64,000 nt of DNA from a virus (lineage: Duplodnaviria; Caudoviricetes), in the IMG/VR virus record IMGVR_UViG_3300032292_000618, positions 1 through 64,000 of that record; one strand, written 5' to 3'. Positions 1 to 13,574 of the stretch are shown here, piece by piece. Under the pieces are notes generated by a model that worked only from the letters and a program-made list of their open reading frames with translations, was not told where the DNA came from and did no database searches. The position numbers were made by a program, and so were the translations under genes. How positions within the stretch are numbered: the first letter of the stretch is position 1; each line of letters starts with the position of its first letter.

Positions 1-2
1 CC

Positions 3-65
3 TGTGGAAAACTATAGTCAAACCTGTGGAAAACCTGTGGAAAAGTATAGTTAACTTGTGGAAAA
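3..65 (-). repeat. Cluster of four direct repeats TGTGGAAAA (TTTTCCACA on the minus strand), DnaA-box-like
   Basis: Exact 9-mer at 3-11, 25-33, 36-44 and 57-65. TTTTCCACA is the DnaA-box variant typical of cyanobacterial oriC. The cluster may continue upstream of the window. Confidence 0.7.
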
Positions 66-114
66 CTCAGTATAAGACAGTGATGAGATGTGTGGGTTTC
101 AGTGAATACAGGGG

Positions 115-143
115 TTGACAAAGTGCAGTGTTTGTGTTATAGT
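115..143 (+). promoter_or_regulatory. sigma70-type early promoter
   Basis: TTGACA (115-120), 17 bp spacer, TATAGT (138-143), with extended -10 TG at 135-136. Confidence 0.8.
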
Positions 144-423
144 GAATTCGCAGTTGTTTTGTTATATTATGTGGGGTGGGGGCGGGTAATGCGAAAAATC
201 CAAACTACCCTAACCTACAGAGGTGACAATTTGAGAGAACGATATAAAGATGATTAAAAAAATTCTGAGTACAAAAAAATCCCCCATAAGGTTAATCTAT
301 GAGGGTCTGTATGGAACTACAATTGGTCCCAGCGATGAGGTGAGTTATATTGTGAGTTGCCTCAGAGAAACATTAAATATAGTTGGGTCCCATTATAGAA
401 AAAAAAATTCTCCCAGGAAAAAA

Positions 424-600
424 ATGAAATATAGGTTAATTGCAAGAGATAGGATATTTTGTGAGGGTACATTAGCAGAATGCAAGGAAGCACTCACAGG
501 AGTTTCCAATATGATTAGTGCAGGATTCTCTACCTCATTTCAGGTAGAAGAGTTTGTGATAGTTAGTATTGGTTGCCAAGGATGCAATTGTGAGGTATGA
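424..600 (+). CDS. Hypothetical protein (58 aa, MKYRLIARDRIF...)
   Basis: 3' part of track ORF 250..600. The 5' part runs through A-tract/low-complexity non-coding-like sequence, so the ATG at 424 is preferred. Confidence 0.5.
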   Translation: MKYRLIARDRIFCEGTLAECKEALTGVSNMISAGFSTSFQVEEFVIVSIGCQGCNCEV

Positions 601-601
601 T
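573..601 (+). promoter_or_regulatory. sigma70-type early promoter
   Basis: TTGCCA-N17-TATGAT directly upstream of the ORF at 625. Confidence 0.55.
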
Positions 602-624
602 AGTACATTGAGGGAGATTGCAGA

Positions 625-777
625 ATGAATAGGTATGCAGTGACTTTGTATAGTATTGTGAATGGATTAACTGTCTGGATTTCCTTTCCTGTTAATAGTC
701 CAATGAGTTCAAAGCAACTCAGATCATATTATGAATGTCAGAGTGTCAGCATTAGTAAAGTTGAGGTATTTGGATGA
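625..777 (+). CDS. Small hypothetical protein (50 aa, MNRYAVTLYSIV...), not in the ORF track
   Basis: GGGAG SD-like site upstream, ATG at 625, TGA at 775-777 abutting the next ATG. Confidence 0.6.
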   Translation: MNRYAVTLYSIVNGLTVWISFPVNSPMSSKQLRSYYECQSVSISKVEVFG

Positions 778-990
778 ATGAAAAAGAATAAGAATACCAT
801 GTGGAGGCTTGTGGCAAAGTCTCTAGGGGAAAAGAGTGGTAATACAGACAAAGAAGCAGATCAGGTTGCAGTGCTTCGTATGGTGATGTTTCTGTCAATT
901 TTTATAACTAATGCATTTATTGTATACAATGCACTTAGGACGCATCACTTTCCAAATTACGAAATTCAATGTAAGAGGCACCACACATGA
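778..990 (+). CDS. Small membrane protein, cyanophage-type hypothetical
   Basis: WRLVAKSLGEKSG..D.EAD.VA motif followed by one hydrophobic helix. Confidence 0.7.
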   Translation: MKKNKNTMWRLVAKSLGEKSGNTDKEADQVAVLRMVMFLSIFITNAFIVYNALRTHHFPNYEIQCKRHHT

Positions 991-1388
991 TTACTAATTC
1001 ATTACTTGCAACGGACAAAGAAAAGATCAAACTCAATTGGTTTGAGTATTGGATTGGTCATTGTTGGATGACAGGATGGCAAAGTATCAGAGGAGCATAT
1101 AGAATATGGGCAGACCTTATGACAGACAATTATAAGGACTATACCCTCCTTCATAACGATGACCCATTCACAGAGTGTTATGAATGGTTCTGGGTGTCAC
1201 TTAATGAAGATGATACCTATCCCAGATCCTTTCTAGAACATCTGATGCAGCTGGTAGATGATGTGAAAACTGGTAAGGAAAAATTGATACCCTTTGATAA
1301 TCTTGATGATCTTATGAAGGATCTTGAAGAGGATCAGTTAAATCCTGATACAATGTATTTGAGTAACAGTGAGGCGGATTTCTCTTAA
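987..1388 (+). CDS. Hypothetical protein (Trp-rich N-terminus)
   Basis: 133 aa ORF with ATGA overlap to the upstream gene. Confidence 0.7.
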   Translation: MITNSLLATDKEKIKLNWFEYWIGHCWMTGWQSIRGAYRIWADLMTDNYKDYTLLHNDDPFTECYEWFWVSLNEDDTYPRSFLEHLMQLVDDVKTGKEKLIPFDNLDDLMKDLEEDQLNPDTMYLSNSEADFS

Positions 1389-1429
1389 AATATTGGACCT
1401 ACCCCGAATTTCTCTCATAATAAGGACCA

Positions 1430-1458
1430 TTGACACCAAATAAATAGTGCAGTATCAT
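1430..1458 (+). promoter_or_regulatory. Nested early (sigma70) and late (gp55) promoter
   Basis: TTGACA (1430-1435)-N17-TATCAT (1453-1458), with AATAAATA (1439-1446) inside the spacer. Confidence 0.65.
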
Positions 1459-1497
1459 TTGAGTTGATACGTACGTACATCACAACTTGAAATTTTT

Positions 1498-2253
1498 ATG
1501 TCAAAAGGATTTACAGTAAAGGCAAAACAACAAGAACAAGAAACACCCCTTTTTAACATTCAAGAATGTCTAGAAAGGATTAAGGGTAAAACAATTGTAT
1601 TCTGTTTACCTGGAAGAGGTGTATCATATATTTTCCTGAAGAACTTCGTTCAACTGTGCTTTGATCTAGTACAGGCAGGAGCAAGTATTCAAATCTCTCA
1701 GGACTACTCTAGCATGGTTAACTTTGCTAGATGTAAGGTACTAGGTGCAAATGTGCTTGCAGGACCAGATCAGGTGCCCTGGCAAGGCAACCTCAATTAT
1801 GATTATCAACTATGGATTGATAGTGATATTGTATTCAATACAGATGCTTTCTGGGCACTGGTTCAAATGGATAAGGACATTGCATGTGGTTGGTATGCCA
1901 CAGAGGATGGTAGAACTACATCAGTTGCGCATTGGGCAGATGAAGCTAACTTCAAGAGCAATGGTGGAGTCATGAATCATGAAATGGTTGATACCATTGG
2001 TAATAGAAAGAAACCATTCACTGTAGACTATACTGGTTTTGGTTGGGTACTCCTTAAGAAAGGGGTCTTTGAGCACCCTGAAATGAAGTATCCATGGTTT
2101 GCACCACAGATGCAAGTCTTTGAGTCTGGAGAGGTCCAGGACATGTGTGGAGAGGATGTTTCATTCTGTCTTGATGCTACTCGTAAGTGTGGTTTTGAGA
2201 TTTGGTGCCATCCACAGATTAGAGTTGGACACGAGAAAACCAGAGTCATTTGA
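1498..2253 (+). CDS. GT-A fold (GT2-like) glycosyltransferase
   Basis: DxD motif (WIDSD), G-F-G-W-V-L-L and GEDVSFC motifs, C-terminal VGH. Confidence 0.75.
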   Translation: MSKGFTVKAKQQEQETPLFNIQECLERIKGKTIVFCLPGRGVSYIFLKNFVQLCFDLVQAGASIQISQDYSSMVNFARCKVLGANVLAGPDQVPWQGNLNYDYQLWIDSDIVFNTDAFWALVQMDKDIACGWYATEDGRTTSVAHWADEANFKSNGGVMNHEMVDTIGNRKKPFTVDYTGFGWVLLKKGVFEHPEMKYPWFAPQMQVFESGEVQDMCGEDVSFCLDATRKCGFEIWCHPQIRVGHEKTRVI

Positions 2254-2256
2254 TCT

Positions 2257-2412
2257 ATGGACAAGTATCGCATTCTTTGTAATGAAAGAGTGATTTATAA
2301 CAATCTTTCAGAAGAAGACATGTTTGAGGTGATGGATGAACTGTCTCAACAATATTATGAGACAGGGGTTCCCAAACCAGATGATCTTGTGGTAGAATGT
2401 CTAAGACCTTAA
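2257..2412 (+). CDS. Small hypothetical protein (51 aa, MDKYRILCNERVIYNNLSEE...), not in the ORF track
   Basis: Open frame filling the gap, tightly packed after the glycosyltransferase. Confidence 0.7.
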   Translation: MDKYRILCNERVIYNNLSEEDMFEVMDELSQQYYETGVPKPDDLVVECLRP

Positions 2413-2424
2413 GGAGATAAGATT

Positions 2425-2568
2425 ATGGCAAAGCGTTCCTCACTGACCAATAAACTCATTATTGAAGGTAAACCAAAGAAGACTCGTCAAGGAATGTCCC
2501 AACATACTAAACTGTCTTCTACCTCTAGTAATGGTGCAAAGAAAAAATACAGAGGACAAGGCAAATAA
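2425..2568 (+). CDS. Small basic protein (47 aa, ending KKKYRGQGK), not in the ORF track
   Basis: AAGGAG SD at 2411-2416, Lys/Arg-rich, followed by a terminator. Confidence 0.75.
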   Translation: MAKRSSLTNKLIIEGKPKKTRQGMSQHTKLSSTSSNGAKKKYRGQGK

Positions 2569-2575
2569 TATAGAT

Positions 2576-2602
2576 AAAGCAGGGGTTATTCCCTGCTTTT
2601 TT
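2576..2602 (+). terminator. Rho-independent terminator
   Basis: AAAGCAGGG-loop-CCCTGCTTT followed by a T run. Confidence 0.75.
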
Positions 2603-2662
2603 ATTGATTATAGGGATGGCAACCCCTTAAAAAGTTCTAATTCACTAGAATTAGGAGCAACT

Positions 2663-2908
2663 ATGTCAAATTTACCTACTGATAGGGACCAAAATTACAT
2701 GTATCAGATGTGGGGGACTACAAAATTAGTCACTGATTACACTAAACCCACAAATACAAGGACAATTCAAGAAATTATGCATGATGATATTGCTAAAACT
2801 AAGCATTTTTTAAAAGAACAGGCAGATATTCATGAAAAAATCAGAAATGATGAAGATTATGATGATTGGGAGTATGGAACTGAGCCTGTGTATGGAAAAC
2901 CACAATAA
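2663..2908 (+). CDS. Hypothetical protein (81 aa, MSNLPTDRD...)
   Basis: AGGAG SD just upstream of ATG 2663. The longer track start (2462) overlaps the small basic gene and the terminator. Confidence 0.7.
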   Translation: MSNLPTDRDQNYMYQMWGTTKLVTDYTKPTNTRTIQEIMHDDIAKTKHFLKEQADIHEKIRNDEDYDDWEYGTEPVYGKPQ

Positions 2909-2933
2909 ATAAAAATAAATATTAAATAAACAA

Positions 2934-3338
2934 GTGCCTTTAGAATCTATTTCCAGAGGATTTAAAGATATTAGTCTGTCTTTCAACAGGCATCCTGTTA
3001 CTAATGATGTTACATCATTGAAAAATGAGGATGCCATTAAAAAATCCGTTATTAACTTAGTCAGAACTAAGGTTGGAGAAAGATTTTTTAATTCTCTGTT
3101 AGGTTCTAATGTAGAAAATTACTTCTTTGAACTGGCTGATAGTGGGATAGTAACACCATTAGAGGATGAGATAAAGAATGTTATAAGAAACTTTGAACCA
3201 AGAGTTTCATTAAGAAGAGTTGATGTTCAATTATATTTGGATCAAAATGAATTGAATGTTGTAATAGTCTATGACATCATTGGTTTAAGTTTACCAACTC
3301 AGAATATTAGCTTCATATTACAACCTACAAGATACTAA
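2934..3338 (+). CDS. gp25: Baseplate wedge subunit gp25
   Basis: GERFFN..LGS and NFEPRV motifs, position before gp6, AATAAATA late boxes upstream. Confidence 0.92.
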   Translation: MPLESISRGFKDISLSFNRHPVTNDVTSLKNEDAIKKSVINLVRTKVGERFFNSLLGSNVENYFFELADSGIVTPLEDEIKNVIRNFEPRVSLRRVDVQLYLDQNELNVVIVYDIIGLSLPTQNISFILQPTRY

Positions 3339-5218
3339 TGACATTCACTCAATTTACAAACCTGGACTTTGATCAGGTAAGAACATCAATTAAAGATTAC
3401 TTAAGGGCAAATTCTACATTTACTGACTTTGACTTTGAAGGATCTAATTTCTCAGTATTGATTGATGTTCTTGCCTACAATACTTATTTGACTGCCTATA
3501 ACACAAATATGGTGGTCAATGAGTCATTCCTTGACAGTGCCACTATTAGAGAGAATGTTGTATCATTAGTTAGAAATATTGGGTATGTTCCACTTTCAAG
3601 AAGATCAGCAAGAGCAAAAATATCATTCAGTGTTACTGGATTAAATGTAAATTACAAAACAATAACCCTAAAGAAAGGAATTGTTTGTACTGGTAACTTA
3701 GATAACACAAGTTATATCTTTTCAATCCCAGAAGATATTACTGTAGGAATTTCAAACAATGAGGCTGTATTCTCACAAATTGAAATTTATGAAGGGACTT
3801 TACTTTCAAAGACATTTATTGTAGATAATTCTCAACCAAACCAAAAATATATTCTTCCAAACCCTTACATAGATACCTCTACAATTAGGGTATCAGTAAA
3901 AGAAACAGCACAGTCTACCACAACAGAAGAATATAATGCAGTAGATAATATTATTGGTATAAATAAAAATTCTCAAATCTTCTTAGTTCAAGAAATATCA
4001 GATGAAAAATATGAATTATTTTTTGGCGATGGGATTTTTGGTAAGCAATTAAGTAATAATAATCAAATTTCAGCAACATACATCACCACAAATGGCAAAT
4101 CTGGTAATGGAGCATCTAGTTTTGATTTTTCTGGAGTAATTTTAACTGATACTGGAGTAGATGTCAGTCCAAATGTTGGGGTTTTAATCACTGATGAGGT
4201 GGCATCTAATGGTGATGACATCCAATCAATAGAATCTATCAAATACTATGCTCCTAGACTGTATTCTACCCAATACAGAGCAGTAACTGCATCTGATTAT
4301 GAGGCACTATTACCATCAATTTATCCAAATATAGAATCAGTTACTGCATATGGTGGCGAAGAGAATAATCCACCAGATTATGGTAAAGTTTTTGTGGCAG
4401 CAAAACCAAAAAATGCAGAATACTTATCACAAAGTACTAAAGAAAGTATAATCCAATCCCTAAAAAAATATACAGTTGCTGGAATTGAAGTTAATTTTGT
4501 AGATGTTAATGTAGTCTATGTGGAATTAGACTCTGTTGTTTATTATAATTCTAATTTTGTGGGATCAGTTAGTGATTTAAGTGCAAAAGTAACTAGTTCT
4601 TTACAGAAGTATTCACAATCTACTGATTTAAATAAATTTGGAGGAAGGTTTAAGTACAGTAAGTGTCTTAGAGTTATAGATGCTACTAGTAATTCTATAA
4701 CATCCAACATCACCAAAATTAAAATTAGAAGAGATGTTGGAGTAATTATAGATAAACCTACTCAATATAAAATATGTTTTGAAAATTCATTTGCAGTTTT
4801 GACAGCACAAAGTAATATAAGGAGCACAGGATTTAGAGTAAATGGAATAGACTCTATTGTTTACATTGGAGATGCAGTTAAAAATTCATCAGAAGGTACT
4901 CTTTTCTTATTTTCATTAGAGGGTGATGAAATGATTACTAGATTACAAAATGTAGGTAGAATTAATTATACTACTGGAGAAATTAATATAGATAATATAA
5001 ATGTATCTTCCACTGTTTTGCCAAATAACATTATAGAAATTGAGGCAACTCCATTATCTAATGATATTATTGCAAAGAAATCTGTATATTTGAAACTTGA
5101 TATTGGAAAAAGCAAAATAAACTTAGTTAAAGATTTAATATCTTCTGGAGAAAATGCCTCTGGAAGCGCGTTTACACCAGAACAAAGTTTTTCAACAAGA
5201 AACATAATAAGAGTATAA
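3338..5218 (+). CDS. gp6: Baseplate wedge subunit gp6
   Basis: LDFDQ, FTDFDFEGS, ESFLDSA..R, FGDG..G and RAVTASDY motifs. Confidence 0.93.
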   Translation: MTFTQFTNLDFDQVRTSIKDYLRANSTFTDFDFEGSNFSVLIDVLAYNTYLTAYNTNMVVNESFLDSATIRENVVSLVRNIGYVPLSRRSARAKISFSVTGLNVNYKTITLKKGIVCTGNLDNTSYIFSIPEDITVGISNNEAVFSQIEIYEGTLLSKTFIVDNSQPNQKYILPNPYIDTSTIRVSVKETAQSTTTEEYNAVDNIIGINKNSQIFLVQEISDEKYELFFGDGIFGKQLSNNNQISATYITTNGKSGNGASSFDFSGVILTDTGVDVSPNVGVLITDEVASNGDDIQSIESIKYYAPRLYSTQYRAVTASDYEALLPSIYPNIESVTAYGGEENNPPDYGKVFVAAKPKNAEYLSQSTKESIIQSLKKYTVAGIEVNFVDVNVVYVELDSVVYYNSNFVGSVSDLSAKVTSSLQKYSQSTDLNKFGGRFKYSKCLRVIDATSNSITSNITKIKIRRDVGVIIDKPTQYKICFENSFAVLTAQSNIRSTGFRVNGIDSIVYIGDAVKNSSEGTLFLFSLEGDEMITRLQNVGRINYTTGEINIDNINVSSTVLPNNIIEIEATPLSNDIIAKKSVYLKLDIGKSKINLVKDLISSGENASGSAFTPEQSFSTRNIIRV

Positions 5219-5219
5219 G

Positions 5220-8200
5220 ATGAATAACGAAAAGAAAGTAATTAAAATTTCAGATGTTGTCAAAAATCAACTTCCTGAATTTATTTTAGAAGAAAATCCA
5301 AACTTTTCGGAATTCTTAAACCAATATTATGTTTCACAAGAGTATACTGGTGGACCAGTAGACCTATCTGAAAATTTAAGCGACTATAAAAATGTAGAAT
5401 CGTTTGATAAAATTAATCTAATAAAAAGTACTACATTAACTTCTGATGCAAGTTTTATTGATTCTGAAATTTATGTAGAATCCACTAATGGATGGCCTAA
5501 TTCTTATGGTCTATTTAAAATTAATAATGAAATCATAACATATACTGGTATAACAACTAATTCATTCTTAGGATGTATTAGGGGGTTTAGTGGCATAGAA
5601 TCCCTTTCTAGTGAAGATAATCCAGAAGTACTTGTATTCTCAAAGACTGAATCTGATTTTCATTCTGAGGGAGACTCAGTAATTAATCTCAGCAATTTAT
5701 TTTTAGTAGAATTCTTTAATAAAATTAAATATCAGTTTACTCCAGGATTTGAAGAAGTAGAACTGGATTCTAAAATTAATCCCCAAAATTTCATTTCAAA
5801 GGCAAAATCATTTTATCAAAGTAAAGGAACAGACGAAGCATATCAGATTTTATTTAAAGTTCTTTATGATGAAGATGTAAAAATTATAAAGCCAAGAGAG
5901 TTTTGCTTTACTTCATCTGATGATAAGTGGGTAGTAACAGAAACTTTTGTATGCGATTTAATCAGTGGTGATCCACTGAAAATAAAGGGACAAACCTTAT
6001 ATCAAGATAGTGATCCATATAATTCAAATGTATTAGAAGCTAATGGATCAATATATGAAGTAGAGTCATTTAAATTAGATAACAAAATATTATATAAGAT
6101 AAAAATATTTGCTGGGTATTCTAATAATATAAGTCCTAAAGGGTCTATTTCTGGCGTTTTTGTATCTACTCCAAAAACATATTCAGTAGAAAATGTAGAT
6201 GTTGAATCAACCACTATATTTGTAGATTCTACAGTAGGATTTCCACAAAGTGGAATATTAAATATCAATGGAACAGAATACACATATTCTGATAAAACTA
6301 ATAATCAATTCACACAAGTAACTGGAATAACTTCCACAACTGTTATTGGAAGAAAATCAGAAATCTATGGATCTAATTTTGTATATTCATATGAAGATGG
6401 AAATACTTCATCCATAGTCAAACTAAAAGTAAACAATGTTTTATCTGGCATAAGATCATCTGAAACATTGTATGCATTAGATAATGATCCAATTAGGATC
6501 GAAAATATAGGAAATACAGTAGATACCACCTTTACAAAATCTTTATATTATAATCATCCATTAACAATTCCATCTGGAATATCTACAACACAAATAACTG
6601 ATACAACAAGAAATTATTTTAAAGAAGGATTTTCTGTAGTAAATGGTTTGGCATTATGCAAATATAATCACAATTTAAAATTAGGTGATACTGTAAATCT
6701 TTTTGCACAGTCTACTGAAGGATATGACTTAATATTATCAGGTCTTTCAGTAAATACTAGTCTGTCTAAAGAATTTAGTGTTCAGCAAATATCAAATCCT
6801 AGTGTTTTAGGGAAAAAGGTTTTATTTAGAAGAAATTTAAAGAAAACAAAAGCAACTCCATTTACCAAACTTTATAATAATATTCAAAATAAATTTACTT
6901 CTAATATTCAAGATTGTTATGTAGATGATAATTATTATTATGTAACATCTAATGGTCTTCCTGATTATGAAATAAACCCATATATTAGAGAGTTTTCCTT
7001 TACTGTTAATGTATCTACATTAGTAGGAACACACAATTTTTATGATGGAGAGGCAGTAAAGGTAGTTTCATATACCACGTCTACTAATTACAATAATAAA
7101 GTTGGAATTGCAACTGGGGTAACTTATTATGTTACTAGATTAAGTTCTAATACTTTAGGATTGACTGAAAATAGAGATAATGTTGGAAATACATCAATAA
7201 ATTTCTTTGAATATGACAATGAAGGTAATTTATTTGGAACTATAGATGAAATAGTTCTTATAAGTTCTCCTTTGTATGGAAATAACTTTACATCTTCAAA
7301 GTTATTTAAAAAAATTCCAAAGAATCTAGAATTTTCTAAAACTAAAGTTGAAACTTCTGCAGGTCCAATTGGAATTTTTGTTAATGGAGTAGAAATTCAA
7401 AATTATAAATCATATGATAAAATTTATTATGGTCAAATTGAGACAGTAGATGTTTTAAATGGTGGCACTAACTATAGTCTGATTAATCCCCCATCTTTCC
7501 AAATTTTTAGTGGAACTGAAGAAGATCAGGATACTTTTTTAATTCCTCAAATGAAGGGAGTTTTAAAAGAGTTAATAGTAGTAAATTCTGGATATGATTA
7601 TGAAGACACTCCAATAGTTACTATAACTGGCGGAAATAATGATGAATTATCTGCTCAAGTTAAAATGAAGAGCATAGATAAGCAGATTCAATTCAATGCA
7701 ACAACTAGAGATACAGTAGTAAATACCGTAACTAATGATCTAAGATTTGGAAGAAATCATGGATTCATAACTGGTGAGCCTATTGTATATGAAACTTTTA
7801 ATACTATTCCAATAGGAATTGGATCTATAGTTTCTGATGGAACTTTATTAAATAACTCAGTCTATTATGCTGTAAATATTGGAGCAGGAACTTCAATTAA
7901 ATTAGCATTAAACCAAGAAGATGCTATTGCAGAAAGGAATTTAATCAATATAAGAACTACTGGTGGAGGAATTCAAAGATTTAAATCTTTGAATAAAATC
8001 CAAGTAATAGACAAAGTAAATGTTTTAGGGCAGAATATTAACTTTGAATATAAAAAATTATCTTTTGGTCCAGAAGATGTCAATGTATACGATAATATTT
8101 TTACTAGCATAGATCATCAATTTAATACTAGAGATAAAGTAGTAATTACAGTAGAAGGAACTTACTTAGATGGAGCAACACCAAATCAAATTTATTATAT

Positions 8201-11200
8201 TTTAAAACTAGATAATGATAGATTCCAACTGACTACTGATCCAGAAGGAAAAAATATATTAAACATTATCAGCACAGATTTCGCTACAACTTATTTTGTA
8301 CAATATCCTCCAATTACTGCTAATGTTTTTGGAAAAATTAAAAAAACTGCATCTGCAGTCATTGGATATGGTGCTACAATCATTCCTGTAGTTGAAGGGT
8401 CTGTTACCTCAGTTAGAGTTCAAAGAGGTCTTGCTAAACCTGCTAAACAGTTCTTAGGGTCAAATAATGTAATAAATTATCATAATCGTCCTACAGTTAC
8501 TGTTTTAGAAGGAAAAGATGCATCTTTTGCTACAGTAATAGAAGATGGAAAAATTATTGATGTTATAGTTAAAAATGCTGGAGAAAATTATTTTAATAAT
8601 TTTGAACTTAAAGTTATTGGAAATGGATATGGAGCACTGTTACAACCAGTATTGAGTAATGGAGAAATCTATAATGGACAAGTAAGTTATGGACAAATTA
8701 TAGATGTTATCATAGCAAATCCTGGAGTTGGATATGCTAGTACAAATACAACTATTCAAGTAGTTTCTAAGGGAGAGAACTTAAAGGTCTCTGCTAATTT
8801 AACTTCTTGGACAATAAATGAAGTTACTAAATTAGGAATTTCAAATTTAAATAATGGAACTATTTTTGGCAAAAAATATTCTTTATTTGGAAATATTTTT
8901 GGAACTTTCTTTTTAGATCAAAACCTTAGATCATCCTTTAATATACCAAGCACTCCAGTAAAGCATTCTCCAATAGTTGGATGGGCTTATGATGGGTGTC
9001 CAATTTATGGTCCATACTCATTTGCCAATTCAGATGGAACTGGTGGTGTAGTTAGGATGAAGAGTGGATATTCTAGATCAAAGATTAGTCCACCTTCTAA
9101 TTTAGATTGTATAGAAGATTATATTTTTACAAATTCTGGATCCTTAGATAGAAATAATGGAAGATTTTGCATCACTCCAGAATATCCAGAGGGAATCTAT
9201 GCGTACTTCTGTACATTAGATGATAATAATGTACCTGCGTTTCCATACATTGTAGGAAATAATTATGAATATACTCCACAACAAGAAAATTTTGATTTAA
9301 AATTTAATCAAAATTTAGATTTTAACAAGTTAAACATTGTAAAATATACAAAACCATACAGAATAGAAGACAAAAATAATTATTATGAGTATTTTAAATT
9401 TGAATCCAATTCTCTAGGAAGTGATGCTGTAATTACATCATCATCATCTGGCAAAGTAGATGCTATAAAGATTATTGATTCTGGACTTAATTATGAGATT
9501 GGAGACAAAATATTATTTGATGTTGATAATCTTGGTGGGGTAGGTGCTTATGGAGAAGTTGTAGAGGTTGAAGGTGTAGGTATAACTACCATACAGTATA
9601 CAACAAATACTTTTTCAGATGTTAAACTATTAAGTATAAACACTGGTATATTAGGTATAACTACAATACCTCATAATTTTGCAGACCAAAGTTTTATTAC
9701 AATTACTGGAATTTCAACAACAGATTATTCTGAAATTGAAGGTACTAGAAAAATTAGAATTAATGTAGAGTATCCAATTACTTCTATCGCAAGCACACTT
9801 TCGGATTCAACTACTACTGGTATTATTACTGGACTATCAGTTAAAGAACCTTTATTCTCATATAATATAGATGATCAATTTAAAATTCAAAGTGAAACTT
9901 TTAAAGTAATAGGATTAGATCTTACCAATAACTTATTAAATGTTTTAAGAGAACCATCATCACCTGGGTATGGAATTGGATCAACAGTTATTCCTTTACA
10001 AAATAGATTTACATTTGAATATAAAGGATTAGATAATCCATTAACTCAATTAGATGAAACTTACTATTTTAATCCAGTTCAATCAGTATCTATTGGGTTA
10101 GGAACTTCTGTAGGATTTGGAAATACTTTAGCAATATATCCATTGGGTGTAGGAATATCTATAACAAAATACGTTCAGTATGGGGGATTATATTTACCAA
10201 ATAATAAGTTTAAAACTGGCGATAGAGTAATATATGAATCAAATGCATCAAGTATAGTAACTAATTTAGGAAATCTTGATTCTATATCAGATCTTTTTGT
10301 AATTAAATTGTCTTCAGATATTGTTGGATTAGTCAACGAAAAGAATAAAATTAATGATGCAGCATCTATACTACAGTACACATCAGTTGGAACTGGAATA
10401 TTACACAAATTAACTACTGTAAGAAATGTTACTACTTGCACAACAATTCAAAATAAAGTAAAAGTATCCACTGGAGAAACTCATGGGTTATCAGTTAATG
10501 ATAACATAAAAGTTAGTGTTATTTCTGGAATAGTTACTAATTATACAGTAGGATATTCAACTATAACTAAAAGAGTATTAATTAATTCTCAAGGAAGTGA
10601 TCTAATTAATGTATATGCTAATGATACTGTGTCCTTTGACACTTCATCATTAAGCTTAAGTGGAAAAGAATTTGGAATTTATACAAATGATTCATTTAAT
10701 AATGAATATTTTGGAAATGAAGAGAATGGGTTAGAAGTCATTAAAACTGCTTCAGAACTTAGATTAAACATTAGTGAATTTACCCCAAGAACTCTTTATT
10801 ATAATTTAAAAAATATTACATCTGATGATGAAATTTATCCAGACATATCTCTAAAGGATTATAACAAGATAATAGTAAACAATAGCTTATTCAATGTTGA
10901 TGCCTCTATAAGCACTACTACTGATTATACATTTGAATTTGATGTTGCAATTCAACCAGAAAGACAAAAATATACAAATATATTATCAACATTAAAGTAT
11001 AATGTAAAATCACCAAATGTAAAAGGTCCAATAGGCAAAGCAAAAGTATTGTTTAATGGATCTAATTATAAAAAACTTCCATTAATTAAACAGATAACAA
11101 CAAAAGAAGGAACTGGTGCTAATTTATTTGCATTTAGCAATAGTATAGGAAAACTTAAGAACGCTAAAGTTACAAATACTCAATCAATTTTCCCAACAGA

Positions 11201-13574
11201 TACTACATTAAGACCAGTTTCAAATGTATTTTCTACTATAAAACTAACAAATAACTATGAAGTCATTGATTGTATTATACAATCTCCTGGATCAAAGTAT
11301 TTAACTTCTCCAACTTTAAAATTATACAATAGAACAGAAGACTTAATTAAAGAAGAATTTACTGCAACTGCTATATTAAAAAATACTTCAATAAATGAAA
11401 TTAAAATACTAAATTCAGGATCTAATCTAAAGTCTACTGACGATGAAATTTTAGTATTAGATAATAGTAATGGGATTAGAATACTATCAGCTTCTGTTGC
11501 TGGAATAGACCCATACCAAGTAACATTAACATTAGAAACTCCTTTAATTGGATTTACTACTGAATCTTCATTGCCAATAAAAGTTGGTGATGAAATATTC
11601 GTTGAAAATATAGAAAGTACCTCTGGTGTAGGATTTAACAGCAAAGATTTTAAATATGTTCCATTTAAAGTAACATTTGTAGATCAAGCATTTAATTCTC
11701 AAGATGCTGCTTTGGTTAGATATGAAGTAAATGAATTCCCTGGAATCTTTAATGAAGATCTTACATTTAATGCAATTGTTATAAATTATTCAGATATTGC
11801 CAAAATTACTCCTGTTTTAGGTGAAAGTCAATTTTATAATTCAGAATTTTTAACTGATGAAGTTCAAATTATTGATAATCCAGATAATGATAAAATTACT
11901 AGGGTGTTGAAACTTCATAAGTCTACTGGACTATCTGTTGGCGATTCTGTTTCTGGGTTATCTTCAAAATCAAAAGGAACTATATCAGATATAGGTGATT
12001 TCCCTGCAGTATTTTCAATAGATTCTAGTGTCCCAGAAACAATAGGGTGGAAAGATTTTAGAGGTAATTTATCCAGCATTTTACAAAAATTACCAGATAA
12101 TGATTACTATCAAAAGTTTTCATATTCACTTAAGAGTAAAATTCCATACACTGATTGGAATTCTATAGTTTCAGATATATCTCATGTTACTGGATATAAA
12201 AAATTTGCAGATTTGAGTATTGAGTCTAATCAAATAGTAGGAATTGGAAGTACTAATAATGATTTAAAAGTTAAATCCGATTTTACATCTTCTGTTAATG
12301 TTGTATTAACATCATATTCTCAAGTAAATACCATTTCAAACTTTGATTTAGTTGTTGAAGAAGATATTGACGAAAGTGAAGGTGCATATTCTGAATTCAT
12401 TAAATTTAAAACTAGAAAATTATCAGATTATATTTTATCAACTCAAAATAGAGTTCTTTCTATTGATGATATTTCCTCATTATTTGATACTGATAATGCT
12501 CCATTTGTTGTAGTCCCTCTAGATGACGTAGATACTACTGAAAATATTGTATTAAAGTATTTCTTCTTTATTGGAGCTACTTCATCATTCTTTGGAGAAT
12601 TTGTAAAACCTGAAGTATTAGATTTATTTGTAACTAGAAATAATGATACTATAAATTTATCATCTTATGGATATTATTATGATTTCTTCACTTCAAGTGG
12701 AGCAGCTGCTCTTCCTTTAGGAGACATTCAAGGAGCAATCAGTCCTACTAATGGAGATGAAATAACTATTAACTTTATTCCAAGGAATATATTTAATAGT
12801 TATGCTATTAGAGCAGTTAAAGAAACTGCAAATGTTTCTGTTGGGATTGCCACAACTTCTTTTGGATATATTAGAAATGTAGAATCTACTGGAATATATA
12901 CATCTACTCCATCACCAGCTACTAGTACTTTCTATAGTATTCCTCTATCAGATTGTGTTGCTGGGTCTGTATTTTTGGGAATATCTTCAGCTCCAAAAAG
13001 AGTTGAAAATGCATTTGAGATAAGTTTTGTCAAAAATCAAAACAACATCATAGATTATAATATTTTTGCAGAACAAAAATATAAGGAACTTGGAGTATTT
13101 GGTATAACCACTAGTGCTGGAAATATACAATTTACATTTACACCTCCAACTGGAATTGGAGTGACTTTATTTACTAATTTTAACTTTATAACCAATACTT
13201 ATGATGTTCCAAATGAAAAAATTAAAGAATTGAGTAGAGTTAGAAGTAACCAAGTAATATATACTGGATCAAGTGCTGTATCAATCTCTACAGTAAGTTC
13301 TGCATATGCAGCAACAAAATATATAATCGAAGCTACTAAAACTGTAGGATTAAGTACTCAAAAATCTTTAGTTCAAATAAATTCTCTTCACTTCCAAGAT
13401 TATTCTAATAACACAGTTTATGGAATAATTGGAGACTTCCCACAAGATGAATTAGACTTTGAAACCATATTAAATCCTCTAACTAGTGAGTACGTATTAA
13501 CATTTAATCCCACTGTTTCAGCTACCTATAGATTTAGATATCTTGAAAAGAGCGTTCTAAATCCAAACACTTAA
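5220..13574 (+). CDS. gp7: Giant baseplate wedge initiator (gp7-like), N-terminal part, with YHYH-type domain
   Basis: QLPEF and FY.SKGT motifs, HSPIVGWAYDG.PIYGPY / LD.NNGRFC.TPEYP.G.YAYF, DNDYYQKFSYS; located between gp6 and gp8. Confidence 0.8.
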   Translation: MNNEKKVIKISDVVKNQLPEFILEENPNFSEFLNQYYVSQEYTGGPVDLSENLSDYKNVESFDKINLIKSTTLTSDASFIDSEIYVESTNGWPNSYGLFKINNEIITYTGITTNSFLGCIRGFSGIESLSSEDNPEVLVFSKTESDFHSEGDSVINLSNLFLVEFFNKIKYQFTPGFEEVELDSKINPQNFISKAKSFYQSKGTDEAYQILFKVLYDEDVKIIKPREFCFTSSDDKWVVTETFVCDLISGDPLKIKGQTLYQDSDPYNSNVLEANGSIYEVESFKLDNKILYKIKIFAGYSNNISPKGSISGVFVSTPKTYSVENVDVESTTIFVDSTVGFPQSGILNINGTEYTYSDKTNNQFTQVTGITSTTVIGRKSEIYGSNFVYSYEDGNTSSIVKLKVNNVLSGIRSSETLYALDNDPIRIENIGNTVDTTFTKSLYYNHPLTIPSGISTTQITDTTRNYFKEGFSVVNGLALCKYNHNLKLGDTVNLFAQSTEGYDLILSGLSVNTSLSKEFSVQQISNPSVLGKKVLFRRNLKKTKATPFTKLYNNIQNKFTSNIQDCYVDDNYYYVTSNGLPDYEINPYIREFSFTVNVSTLVGTHNFYDGEAVKVVSYTTSTNYNNKVGIATGVTYYVTRLSSNTLGLTENRDNVGNTSINFFEYDNEGNLFGTIDEIVLISSPLYGNNFTSSKLFKKIPKNLEFSKTKVETSAGPIGIFVNGVEIQNYKSYDKIYYGQIETVDVLNGGTNYSLINPPSFQIFSGTEEDQDTFLIPQMKGVLKELIVVNSGYDYEDTPIVTITGGNNDELSAQVKMKSIDKQIQFNATTRDTVVNTVTNDLRFGRNHGFITGEPIVYETFNTIPIGIGSIVSDGTLLNNSVYYAVNIGAGTSIKLALNQEDAIAERNLINIRTTGGGIQRFKSLNKIQVIDKVNVLGQNINFEYKKLSFGPEDVNVYDNIFTSIDHQFNTRDKVVITVEGTYLDGATPNQIYYILKLDNDRFQLTTDPEGKNILNIISTDFATTYFVQYPPITANVFGKIKKTASAVIGYGATIIPVVEGSVTSVRVQRGLAKPAKQFLGSNNVINYHNRPTVTVLEGKDASFATVIEDGKIIDVIVKNAGENYFNNFELKVIGNGYGALLQPVLSNGEIYNGQVSYGQIIDVIIANPGVGYASTNTTIQVVSKGENLKVSANLTSWTINEVTKLGISNLNNGTIFGKKYSLFGNIFGTFFLDQNLRSSFNIPSTPVKHSPIVGWAYDGCPIYGPYSFANSDGTGGVVRMKSGYSRSKISPPSNLDCIEDYIFTNSGSLDRNNGRFCITPEYPEGIYAYFCTLDDNNVPAFPYIVGNNYEYTPQQENFDLKFNQNLDFNKLNIVKYTKPYRIEDKNNYYEYFKFESNSLGSDAVITSSSSGKVDAIKIIDSGLNYEIGDKILFDVDNLGGVGAYGEVVEVEGVGITTIQYTTNTFSDVKLLSINTGILGITTIPHNFADQSFITITGISTTDYSEIEGTRKIRINVEYPITSIASTLSDSTTTGIITGLSVKEPLFSYNIDDQFKIQSETFKVIGLDLTNNLLNVLREPSSPGYGIGSTVIPLQNRFTFEYKGLDNPLTQLDETYYFNPVQSVSIGLGTSVGFGNTLAIYPLGVGISITKYVQYGGLYLPNNKFKTGDRVIYESNASSIVTNLGNLDSISDLFVIKLSSDIVGLVNEKNKINDAASILQYTSVGTGILHKLTTVRNVTTCTTIQNKVKVSTGETHGLSVNDNIKVSVISGIVTNYTVGYSTITKRVLINSQGSDLINVYANDTVSFDTSSLSLSGKEFGIYTNDSFNNEYFGNEENGLEVIKTASELRLNISEFTPRTLYYNLKNITSDDEIYPDISLKDYNKIIVNNSLFNVDASISTTTDYTFEFDVAIQPERQKYTNILSTLKYNVKSPNVKGPIGKAKVLFNGSNYKKLPLIKQITTKEGTGANLFAFSNSIGKLKNAKVTNTQSIFPTDTTLRPVSNVFSTIKLTNNYEVIDCIIQSPGSKYLTSPTLKLYNRTEDLIKEEFTATAILKNTSINEIKILNSGSNLKSTDDEILVLDNSNGIRILSASVAGIDPYQVTLTLETPLIGFTTESSLPIKVGDEIFVENIESTSGVGFNSKDFKYVPFKVTFVDQAFNSQDAALVRYEVNEFPGIFNEDLTFNAIVINYSDIAKITPVLGESQFYNSEFLTDEVQIIDNPDNDKITRVLKLHKSTGLSVGDSVSGLSSKSKGTISDIGDFPAVFSIDSSVPETIGWKDFRGNLSSILQKLPDNDYYQKFSYSLKSKIPYTDWNSIVSDISHVTGYKKFADLSIESNQIVGIGSTNNDLKVKSDFTSSVNVVLTSYSQVNTISNFDLVVEEDIDESEGAYSEFIKFKTRKLSDYILSTQNRVLSIDDISSLFDTDNAPFVVVPLDDVDTTENIVLKYFFFIGATSSFFGEFVKPEVLDLFVTRNNDTINLSSYGYYYDFFTSSGAAALPLGDIQGAISPTNGDEITINFIPRNIFNSYAIRAVKETANVSVGIATTSFGYIRNVESTGIYTSTPSPATSTFYSIPLSDCVAGSVFLGISSAPKRVENAFEISFVKNQNNIIDYNIFAEQKYKELGVFGITTSAGNIQFTFTPPTGIGVTLFTNFNFITNTYDVPNEKIKELSRVRSNQVIYTGSSAVSISTVSSAYAATKYIIEATKTVGLSTQKSLVQINSLHFQDYSNNTVYGIIGDFPQDELDFETILNPLTSEYVLTFNPTVSATYRFRYLEKSVLNPNT

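Follow-up and report, generated by a model that had tools for sequence, protein, structure and literature searches.

The locus described here raises the question of whether a T4-like phage senses or uses the replication initiator of its host, DnaA, or disarms it. Cyanomyoviruses kill a large share of the ocean's Prochlorococcus and Synechococcus, and to our knowledge neither their replication origins nor a coupling of their replication to the host cell cycle have been mapped. The literature searched for DnaA boxes or a mapped origin in cyanophages or cyanomyoviruses contained no description of either. The window, which is the whole stretch of 64,000 nucleotides that was analysed, is the start of a linear contig of 142,782 bp that is about 67% complete. 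The T4-like label given to this DNA in an earlier note agrees with the gp25-like and gp6-like baseplate wedge genes on the plus strand at 2934-5218, which also fix the synteny of the box locus, and the similar records belong to the Kyanoviridae.

The 9-mer TGTGGAAAA, which reads TTTTCCACA on the minus strand, is found as exact copies at 3-11, 25-33, 36-44 and 57-65, all on the plus strand, with start-to-start spacings of 22, 11 and 21 bp. Exact matching thus reproduces the four identical and co-oriented 9-mers starting at 3, 25, 36 and 57 that the earlier note had reported. These four are all the exact copies in the 64-kb window, and the contig has a fifth, lone copy at 118134, so that four of the five copies lie within 66 bp and the enrichment over the rest of the genome that the note had proposed to test is present. 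Base composition predicts about two exact boxes (approximately 1.4 + 0.55) in the entire contig, and four in 66 bp is therefore far beyond chance. Window 1-66 consists of two copies of a 33-bp unit, at 1-33 and 34-66, and every copy holds two boxes and one TATAGT; the four boxes are thus not four independent events, and the independent evidence comes from their conservation in relatives. Box 1 (3-11) is flanked by CC and C, boxes 2 (25-33) and 3 (36-44) are the two halves of a CC-linked doublet with an 11-bp period, and box 4 (57-65) closes the predicted forward DnaA-box array. The boxes are located 184, 162, 151 and 130 bp from the anchor at 187, the beginning of a conserved leader, as in the related loci L054, L272 and L273, in which the first forward box has the same distance to the anchor as box 1. 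The 9-mer of the phylum consensus, its clustering above background and the oriC-like spacing and flanks are those of a DnaA-box cluster, as far as sequence can indicate.

Since the window begins at the contig end, the array is cut on its left side. The missing left part of the module is represented by the closest relative, L241, whose nucleotide identity over window 1-900 is 92%; its alignment starts at base 1, and its array opens with the same cc-TGTGGAAAA-ctatagtcaaacc-TGTGGAAAA. Because this alignment reaches base 1, the window sequence can be taken as real phage DNA, and box 1 as the box that opens the forward array. The complete forward array is probably present in the window, while about 260-450 bp with 3-4 further boxes would lie off the left contig end by comparison with the relatives. 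The parts that appear to be missing from the window, judged from the same relatives, are a reverse box, a backward promoter, an inverted box pair and an AT-rich block. Host DNA or a chimeric contig end was considered and rejected, because the start of the window, base 1 included, aligns with independent viral contigs, and the locus is syntenic in complete isolates. An exact 35-mer scan of metagenome contigs for upstream sequence of the same phage returned nothing, and a 31-mer from the array led to one further relative with 87% identity. The other contig end (G000:C1:142483-142782), which is outside the window, stops in a collagen-like repeat made of CAAGGN units coding for Gly-X-Y; as both ends of the contig are thus repetitive, repeats are the probable cause of the assembly breaks.

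When viral contigs were scanned for the doublet, over 115 loci were retrieved; about 40 belong to relatives of the window phage, which have 5-8 exact boxes at the locus, on both strands. From left to right, their module opens with the end of the upstream gene and an AT-rich stretch in which AATAAATGT is repeated. An inverted box pair and a conserved leftward promoter follow, then a single reverse box. After about 70 bp come three to five forward boxes and, about 50 bp further on, the rightward promoter TTGACA-N17-TATAGT, the conserved leader (window 187-238) and the first ORF (window 250-600). The forward boxes follow the layout box-N12/13-box-N2-box, sometimes then N13-box. The closest relatives, L241 (1936-1964), L018 and L300, have two reverse boxes 20 bp apart in the 3' end of the upstream 76-aa ORF, where they are read as ...EKFSTVYDSFPQ..., so that predicted binding sites are embedded in coding sequence.

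The leader at 187-238 was used as a box-independent anchor for fetching relatives, and the loci retrieved by this motif alone form an unbiased sample of 49 loci with at least 450 bp upstream. Exact boxes number 5-8 in 45 of them, one in a single locus and none in three. Conservation in related cyanomyoviruses, which the earlier note had considered critical for its proposal, therefore holds in 45/49 loci chosen independently of the boxes. In the three box-free loci the array is replaced by an inserted gene that resembles GIY-YIG homing endonucleases, an assignment based on reading of the translation only. In L244, L254, L285 and L298, a small GIY-YIG-like gene takes the place of the forward array and box remnants TGTGGAAATTGTGGATTT are left. 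Boxes number 9.23 per kb in the 700 bp that precede the leader, compared with 0.017 per kb elsewhere in the same loci. Among 39 unique relatives there are 164 exact boxes and 11 boxes with one mismatch, while the N12/13 spacer occurs in 13 versions with about 65% identity; boxes that stay exact while spacers drift indicate selection on all nine letters of the box and not on the region as a whole. Spacings between neighbouring boxes of the same strand in relatives fall at 11-12, 19-22 and 32-33 bp, with one exception at 9, which upholds the helical phasing described by the earlier note from the window boxes.

The boxes are concentrated at one main syntenic locus in each larger record, which holds 8/8 exact boxes of the 47-kb contig of L241, 6/8 of contig G254 (37% complete, and containing L248), 4/6 of ACG-2014d, 3/7 of Sf-FR1, 2/4 of P-TIM68 and 2/3 of S-SM2. 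The number of exact boxes varies among phages that have the promoter and AT-rich cassette described below: seven at the locus in DSL-LC03, four in ACG-2014d together with two near-matches, three in Sf-FR1, two in P-TIM68, two in S-SM2 with one near-match, one in S-PRM1 with one near-match, and none in S-SCSM2R and Sf-FS3, all of which are cultured phages. In P-TIM68, S-SM2 and ACG-2014d the box locus is found among small early-type genes, and the baseplate wedge genes follow it at a distance of about 2-3 kb, and in Sf-FR1 the array is found in a similar block of small genes. A BLAST search of bases 1-250 against the phage collection missed the isolate arrays at the default threshold, because the matches are short, and found them at E <= 10. 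The layout of the boxes also differs by lineage and includes tandem arrays and palindromic pairs every 32 bp, to the left or to the right of the cassette. S-SCSM2R, Sf-FS3 and the three contigs with the GIY-YIG insert keep the cassette without boxes, which shows that the boxes are dispensable.

The sequence TTTTCCACA is the cyanobacterial DnaA box, and DnaA domain IV binds a doublet with a 2-nt linker in vitro (PMC4674748). The identification made in the earlier note is thus supported by a published consensus and also by clusters linked to dnaA and dnaN. The layout box-N12/13-box-NN-box was found in 107 bacterial genome stretches, many of them cyanobacterial, and in 4/5 cyanobacterial loci tested the layout with the N2 linker is located either in the dnaA-dnaN interval or a short distance upstream of dnaN. 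Of 251 sampled cyanobacterial genomes, 150 contain the doublet, and none contains its reversed control. Its linker in cyanobacteria is mostly CC or CT, as at window 25-44, and the window doublet TGTGGAAAACCTGTGGAAAA is the commonest form among these genomes. Flanks of the type AACC[box]CT are common to phage boxes and chromosomal clusters, the AA being due in part to the doublet structure itself.

A DnaA encoded by the phage was considered as the reader of these boxes and rejected, since no gene with DnaA domain IV was found in the contig or in four complete cyanomyovirus isolate genomes, which leaves host DnaA as the likely reader; three picocyanobacteria-sized genomes have one dnaA each. Arrays of the same kind are found in unrelated phages. 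The microvirus mar31 (MZ089777.1, L305), which comes from marmot faeces and has eight annotated genes, carries 12 exact TGTGGAAAA boxes; in the main intergenic region (1917-2074), 11 of them form a perfect tandem array of 11-bp units, CCTGTGGAAAA. The array is also matched by Clostridium phage CDMH1, Lactococcus phage PMBT69 and other microviruses. The occurrence of the same array in unrelated phages points to a universal host reader, and DnaA would be much the simplest reader common to all bacteria. From these sequence matches we infer DnaA binding at the array, and host DnaA very probably is the protein that binds the phage boxes. The alternative that another protein, encoded by the phage or by the host, reads the boxes and that their identity with DnaA boxes is coincidental could draw on the many small ORFs without assigned function that flank the locus. 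It appears very improbable, because the match with host oriC sites is exact over 9 bases and includes flanks, 2-nt linker and phasing as well, and because unrelated phages that have no proteins in common with this one, the eight-gene microvirus among them, carry the same arrays.

The phage array was compared with host origin regions, the host genomes being judged picocyanobacterial from size, gene order and composition only. In two small cyanobacterial genomes (1.75 and 2.27 Mb, with dnaN at base about 170), the gap between thrC and dnaN has 1-3 near-consensus boxes, and a trio run, TTCCACA-AGAC-CTACTACTACT, is clearly recognizable in the host-type gap. Perfect boxes are more numerous in the phage array than in the origin regions of these picocyanobacteria-sized genomes. 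Copying of the array from a host origin is not supported, because the thrC-dnaN gaps of these two genomes have few near-consensus boxes and no similarity to the phage flanks. The picocyanobacteria-sized genomes have 16-25 exact boxes each, no commoner than the reversed control, so that a full phage array equals a third to half of the perfect sites of the host chromosome. The other small box clusters of the host adjoin unrelated genes. Two minor clusters were observed away from dnaN in small cyanobacterial genomes: L235 (G071:C1:1359826-1360244) has the phage-like layout TTTTCCATA-N13-TTTTCCACA-N2-TTTTCCACA in an ORF-poor stretch of 2.4 kb, and in L237 and L238 two boxes 44 bp apart form a conserved pair, with an EVE-domain gene on one side and a DUF1818 gene on the other.

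The basal unwinding system of bacterial origins contains DnaA-trios, repeats of 3'-GAT-5' within about 16 bp of a box (PMC8287927). A consensus DnaA-trio run (YTA x3) within 30 nt of a box was found at 0/344 phage boxes and at 0/4 boxes of the window. A relaxed published rule gives matches above background in the phages, which come from T-rich spacers and neighbouring boxes, and this rule was rejected as evidence because it does not discriminate in a T-rich array. A classical origin melted by DnaA is unlikely, because consensus trios are absent and some relatives that bear the cassette lack boxes. The earlier note had proposed that the phage either recruits host DnaA to start replication or titrates it; a site for host DnaA is the part of this proposal that is supported, and either use may apply, provided that recruitment is not taken to mean a classical DnaA-melted origin.

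Predicted promoters flank the array. A predicted early promoter of the sigma-70 type, TTGACA-N17-TATAGT with a TG extension, is located at 115-143 on the plus strand and matches 11/12 consensus positions. It has the same position in 32/33 unique relatives, occurs as a single copy in the contig and probably drives the rightward genes. The forward array is 50-110 bp upstream of its -35 box and lies between two divergent promoters. The other one, the backward promoter, matches the consensus TTGAC[AT]-N17-TAnnnT in 33/33 unique relatives. On its transcribed side, about 100-250 bp beyond its -35 box, 32/33 relatives have their AT-richest 40 bp (75-88% AT); this stretch adjoins the inverted box pair, at 250-350 bp to the left. 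The genome has 66% AT, so that this AT-rich block is only moderately above it, and none is present within the window. No convincing gene was found on the strand of the backward transcript of the cassette in relatives. The cassette is more constant than the boxes across relatives, and the boxes are within about 150 bp of it in ACG-2014d, Sf-FR1, P-TIM68 and DSL-LC03.

The layout of the cassette appears to be that of an R-loop origin of the T4 oriF/oriG type, where the evidence for the backward promoter and the AT-rich block comes from relatives and the corresponding DNA would lie outside the window. The reading preferred here, with a probability of roughly 0.38, is that the array is an optional docking platform for host DnaA, which would tune a candidate R-loop origin and the early promoters. 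The four boxes of the window would be the forward arm of a docking array of 5-8 sites, which would be placed in the one large gene-free control region of the clade, between divergent sigma-70 early promoters. The phased sites, 11 and 21-22 bp apart and on one face of the helix, would let DnaA assemble as a short oligomer, and this oligomer could tune the neighbouring cassette, in which the backward promoter reads into the AT-rich block. DnaA would thus act as an accessory activator or timer and not as the melting protein, comparable to the stimulation by DnaA of transcriptional activation at ori-lambda. Firing of the phage origin and early transcription might then follow the status of the host initiator, and DnaA would inevitably be soaked up as a side effect. 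A link of the array to replication is speculative, as is the direction in which it would act, and the co-location of boxes and cassette could simply reflect the scarcity of long non-coding stretches. It is doubtful, though within reach of the same data, that DnaA occupancy reports the cell-cycle or day-night state of the host and gates an R-loop origin made of the backward promoter and the AT-rich block.

The main rival to the docking platform is that the array sequesters host DnaA, as datA or the box clusters of Bacillus subtilis do, and takes up more of it as phage genomes multiply, with the effect that re-initiation of the host chromosome is blocked and nucleotides are spared for the phage. 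Perfect, phased boxes of predicted high affinity without DnaA-trios fit this use better than an origin, a full array of 7-8 boxes is large against the 16-25 exact boxes of a picocyanobacteria-sized genome, and an optional array with a free layout is expected if only the number of sites matters. Such an array could, however, sit anywhere, yet the boxes always adjoin the promoter and AT-rich cassette. A single incoming genome moreover adds few sites and many copies exist only once replication is under way, and no site for a cofactor that promotes hydrolysis was identified; sequestration as the purpose of the array is considered unlikely. DnaA is also a known transcription factor in bacteria, and the array might be purely an operator through which host DnaA acts on the divergent early promoters, such as that of the rightward operon starting at 250, with no role in replication. 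The position of the forward array upstream of the rightward -35 box and between divergent promoters agrees with this, palindromic box pairs abut the -35 box in one lineage (L248), and of 11 strong plus-strand promoters in the contig only the one at 115-143 has boxes nearby. The distance between boxes and promoter is not conserved between lineages, however: it varies from about 10 bp to over 100 bp, and the boxes may be to the left or to the right of the cassette; eight perfect sites exceed the usual need of an operator, and the backward promoter has no evident gene to express. An exclusively transcriptional role is likewise considered unlikely.

Scarcely credible is the view that the boxes are a functionless tandem repeat, an assembly artefact or captured host DNA. 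The 33-bp unit is indeed present twice at a contig end and the copy number of the boxes varies between relatives, but the alignment with independent contigs from base 1 and the synteny in complete isolate genomes are not those of an artefact, the boxes are exact while the spacers diverge, and the flanks have no similarity to the host oriC regions examined. The docking platform for host DnaA beside a candidate R-loop origin remains the preferred reading, and it can be compared with several known systems. The array is similar to cyanobacterial oriC clusters in the identical 9-mer, the 2-nt CC or CT linker, the layout box-N12/13-box-N2-box, the flanks and the presence of both orientations, and differs from them in having neither linkage to dnaA and dnaN nor a consensus DnaA-trio run.

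In T4, the R-loop origins oriF (uvsY) and oriG are formed by a promoter and a downstream unwinding element; they use MotA-dependent middle promoters and no host initiator, and the review that describes them does not mention DnaA (PMC3016281). The locus resembles these origins in that the phage is T4-like and the promoter of its relatives reads into an AT-rich stretch without evident gene. It differs in its promoters, which by their consensus (TTGACA-N17-TAnnnT) are of the sigma-70 type rather than MotA-dependent, and in the DnaA boxes that flank the promoter. The datA locus of Escherichia coli and the DnaA-box clusters of B. subtilis are chromosomal sinks for DnaA. Like them, the phage array is a cluster of boxes, of predicted high affinity, away from oriC and without an unwinding element; unlike them, it is carried by a lytic phage and adjoins promoters, whereas the chromosomal clusters regulate initiation in their own cell. 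In phage lambda, DnaA stimulates transcriptional activation at pR and ori-lambda, and origins of the P1, F and pSC101 type carry accessory DnaA boxes. By analogy with these systems, the array may represent boxes for host DnaA on a foreign replicon with its own replication proteins, DnaA being a helper. Lambda and these plasmids have a dedicated initiator, O or Rep, and iterons, in contrast to the present phage, in which none is evident and the replisome is of the T4 type.

If a gated R-loop origin were true, the T4 superfamily would have its first origin dependent on the host initiator, and the origin of cyanomyoviruses, so far unmapped, would be located. For a comparison, phages with arrays (DSL-LC03, ACG-2014d and Sf-FR1) and without them (Sf-FS3 and S-SCSM2R) already exist in culture. 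The presence of the same 11-bp arrays in unrelated phages, a microvirus among them, suggests that the phenomenon may be widespread.

In relatives, the predicted backward transcript has near its start the conserved sequence GC[CT]AAGA[TC]NACAAC, for example in L012, L022, P-TIM68, ACG-2014d and Sf-FR1, and an inverted repeat, TTGTGAT ... ATCACAA, spans the backward -10 region in several lineages. This motif and the inverted repeat could be a 5' element of the RNA or a further protein site.

The conserved 5' leader TAATGCGAAAA ... CCCTAACCTACAGAGGTGACAA (187-238, plus strand) is shared by isolates from several genera and by 57 viral contigs. Even distant cyanomyovirus lineages (P-TIM68, S-SM2, Bellamy, SynMITS9220M01 and ACG-2014d) retain its core CCTAACCTACA, and the leader is found once in the contig. 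An Rfam search of window 1-3000 gave no significant family, and RNAalifold gave no consensus fold for the leader. At the end of the leader there is a Shine-Dalgarno-like GAGGTGA (220-226), 23 nt before the listed ATG at 250, and a TTG at 231 opens a frame of 9 codons that overlaps this ATG. The first rightward ORF (250-600, plus strand, 116 aa) has relatives with 68-94% identity and no PHROG match. It contains twice an A-run/T-run motif, AAAAAAATTCT ... AAAAAAAT, at 255-305 and 398-427, and the first copy is followed by a hairpin that is scored as a minus-strand terminator (305-281). The same motif precedes internal ATGs in relatives, which makes both the model of this ORF and the role of the motif uncertain. 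Small ORFs without assigned function flank the box locus, and the only repeats seen there are the boxes themselves. Further downstream, an ORF of 2784 aa (5220-13574) directly follows the gp6-like baseplate wedge gene.
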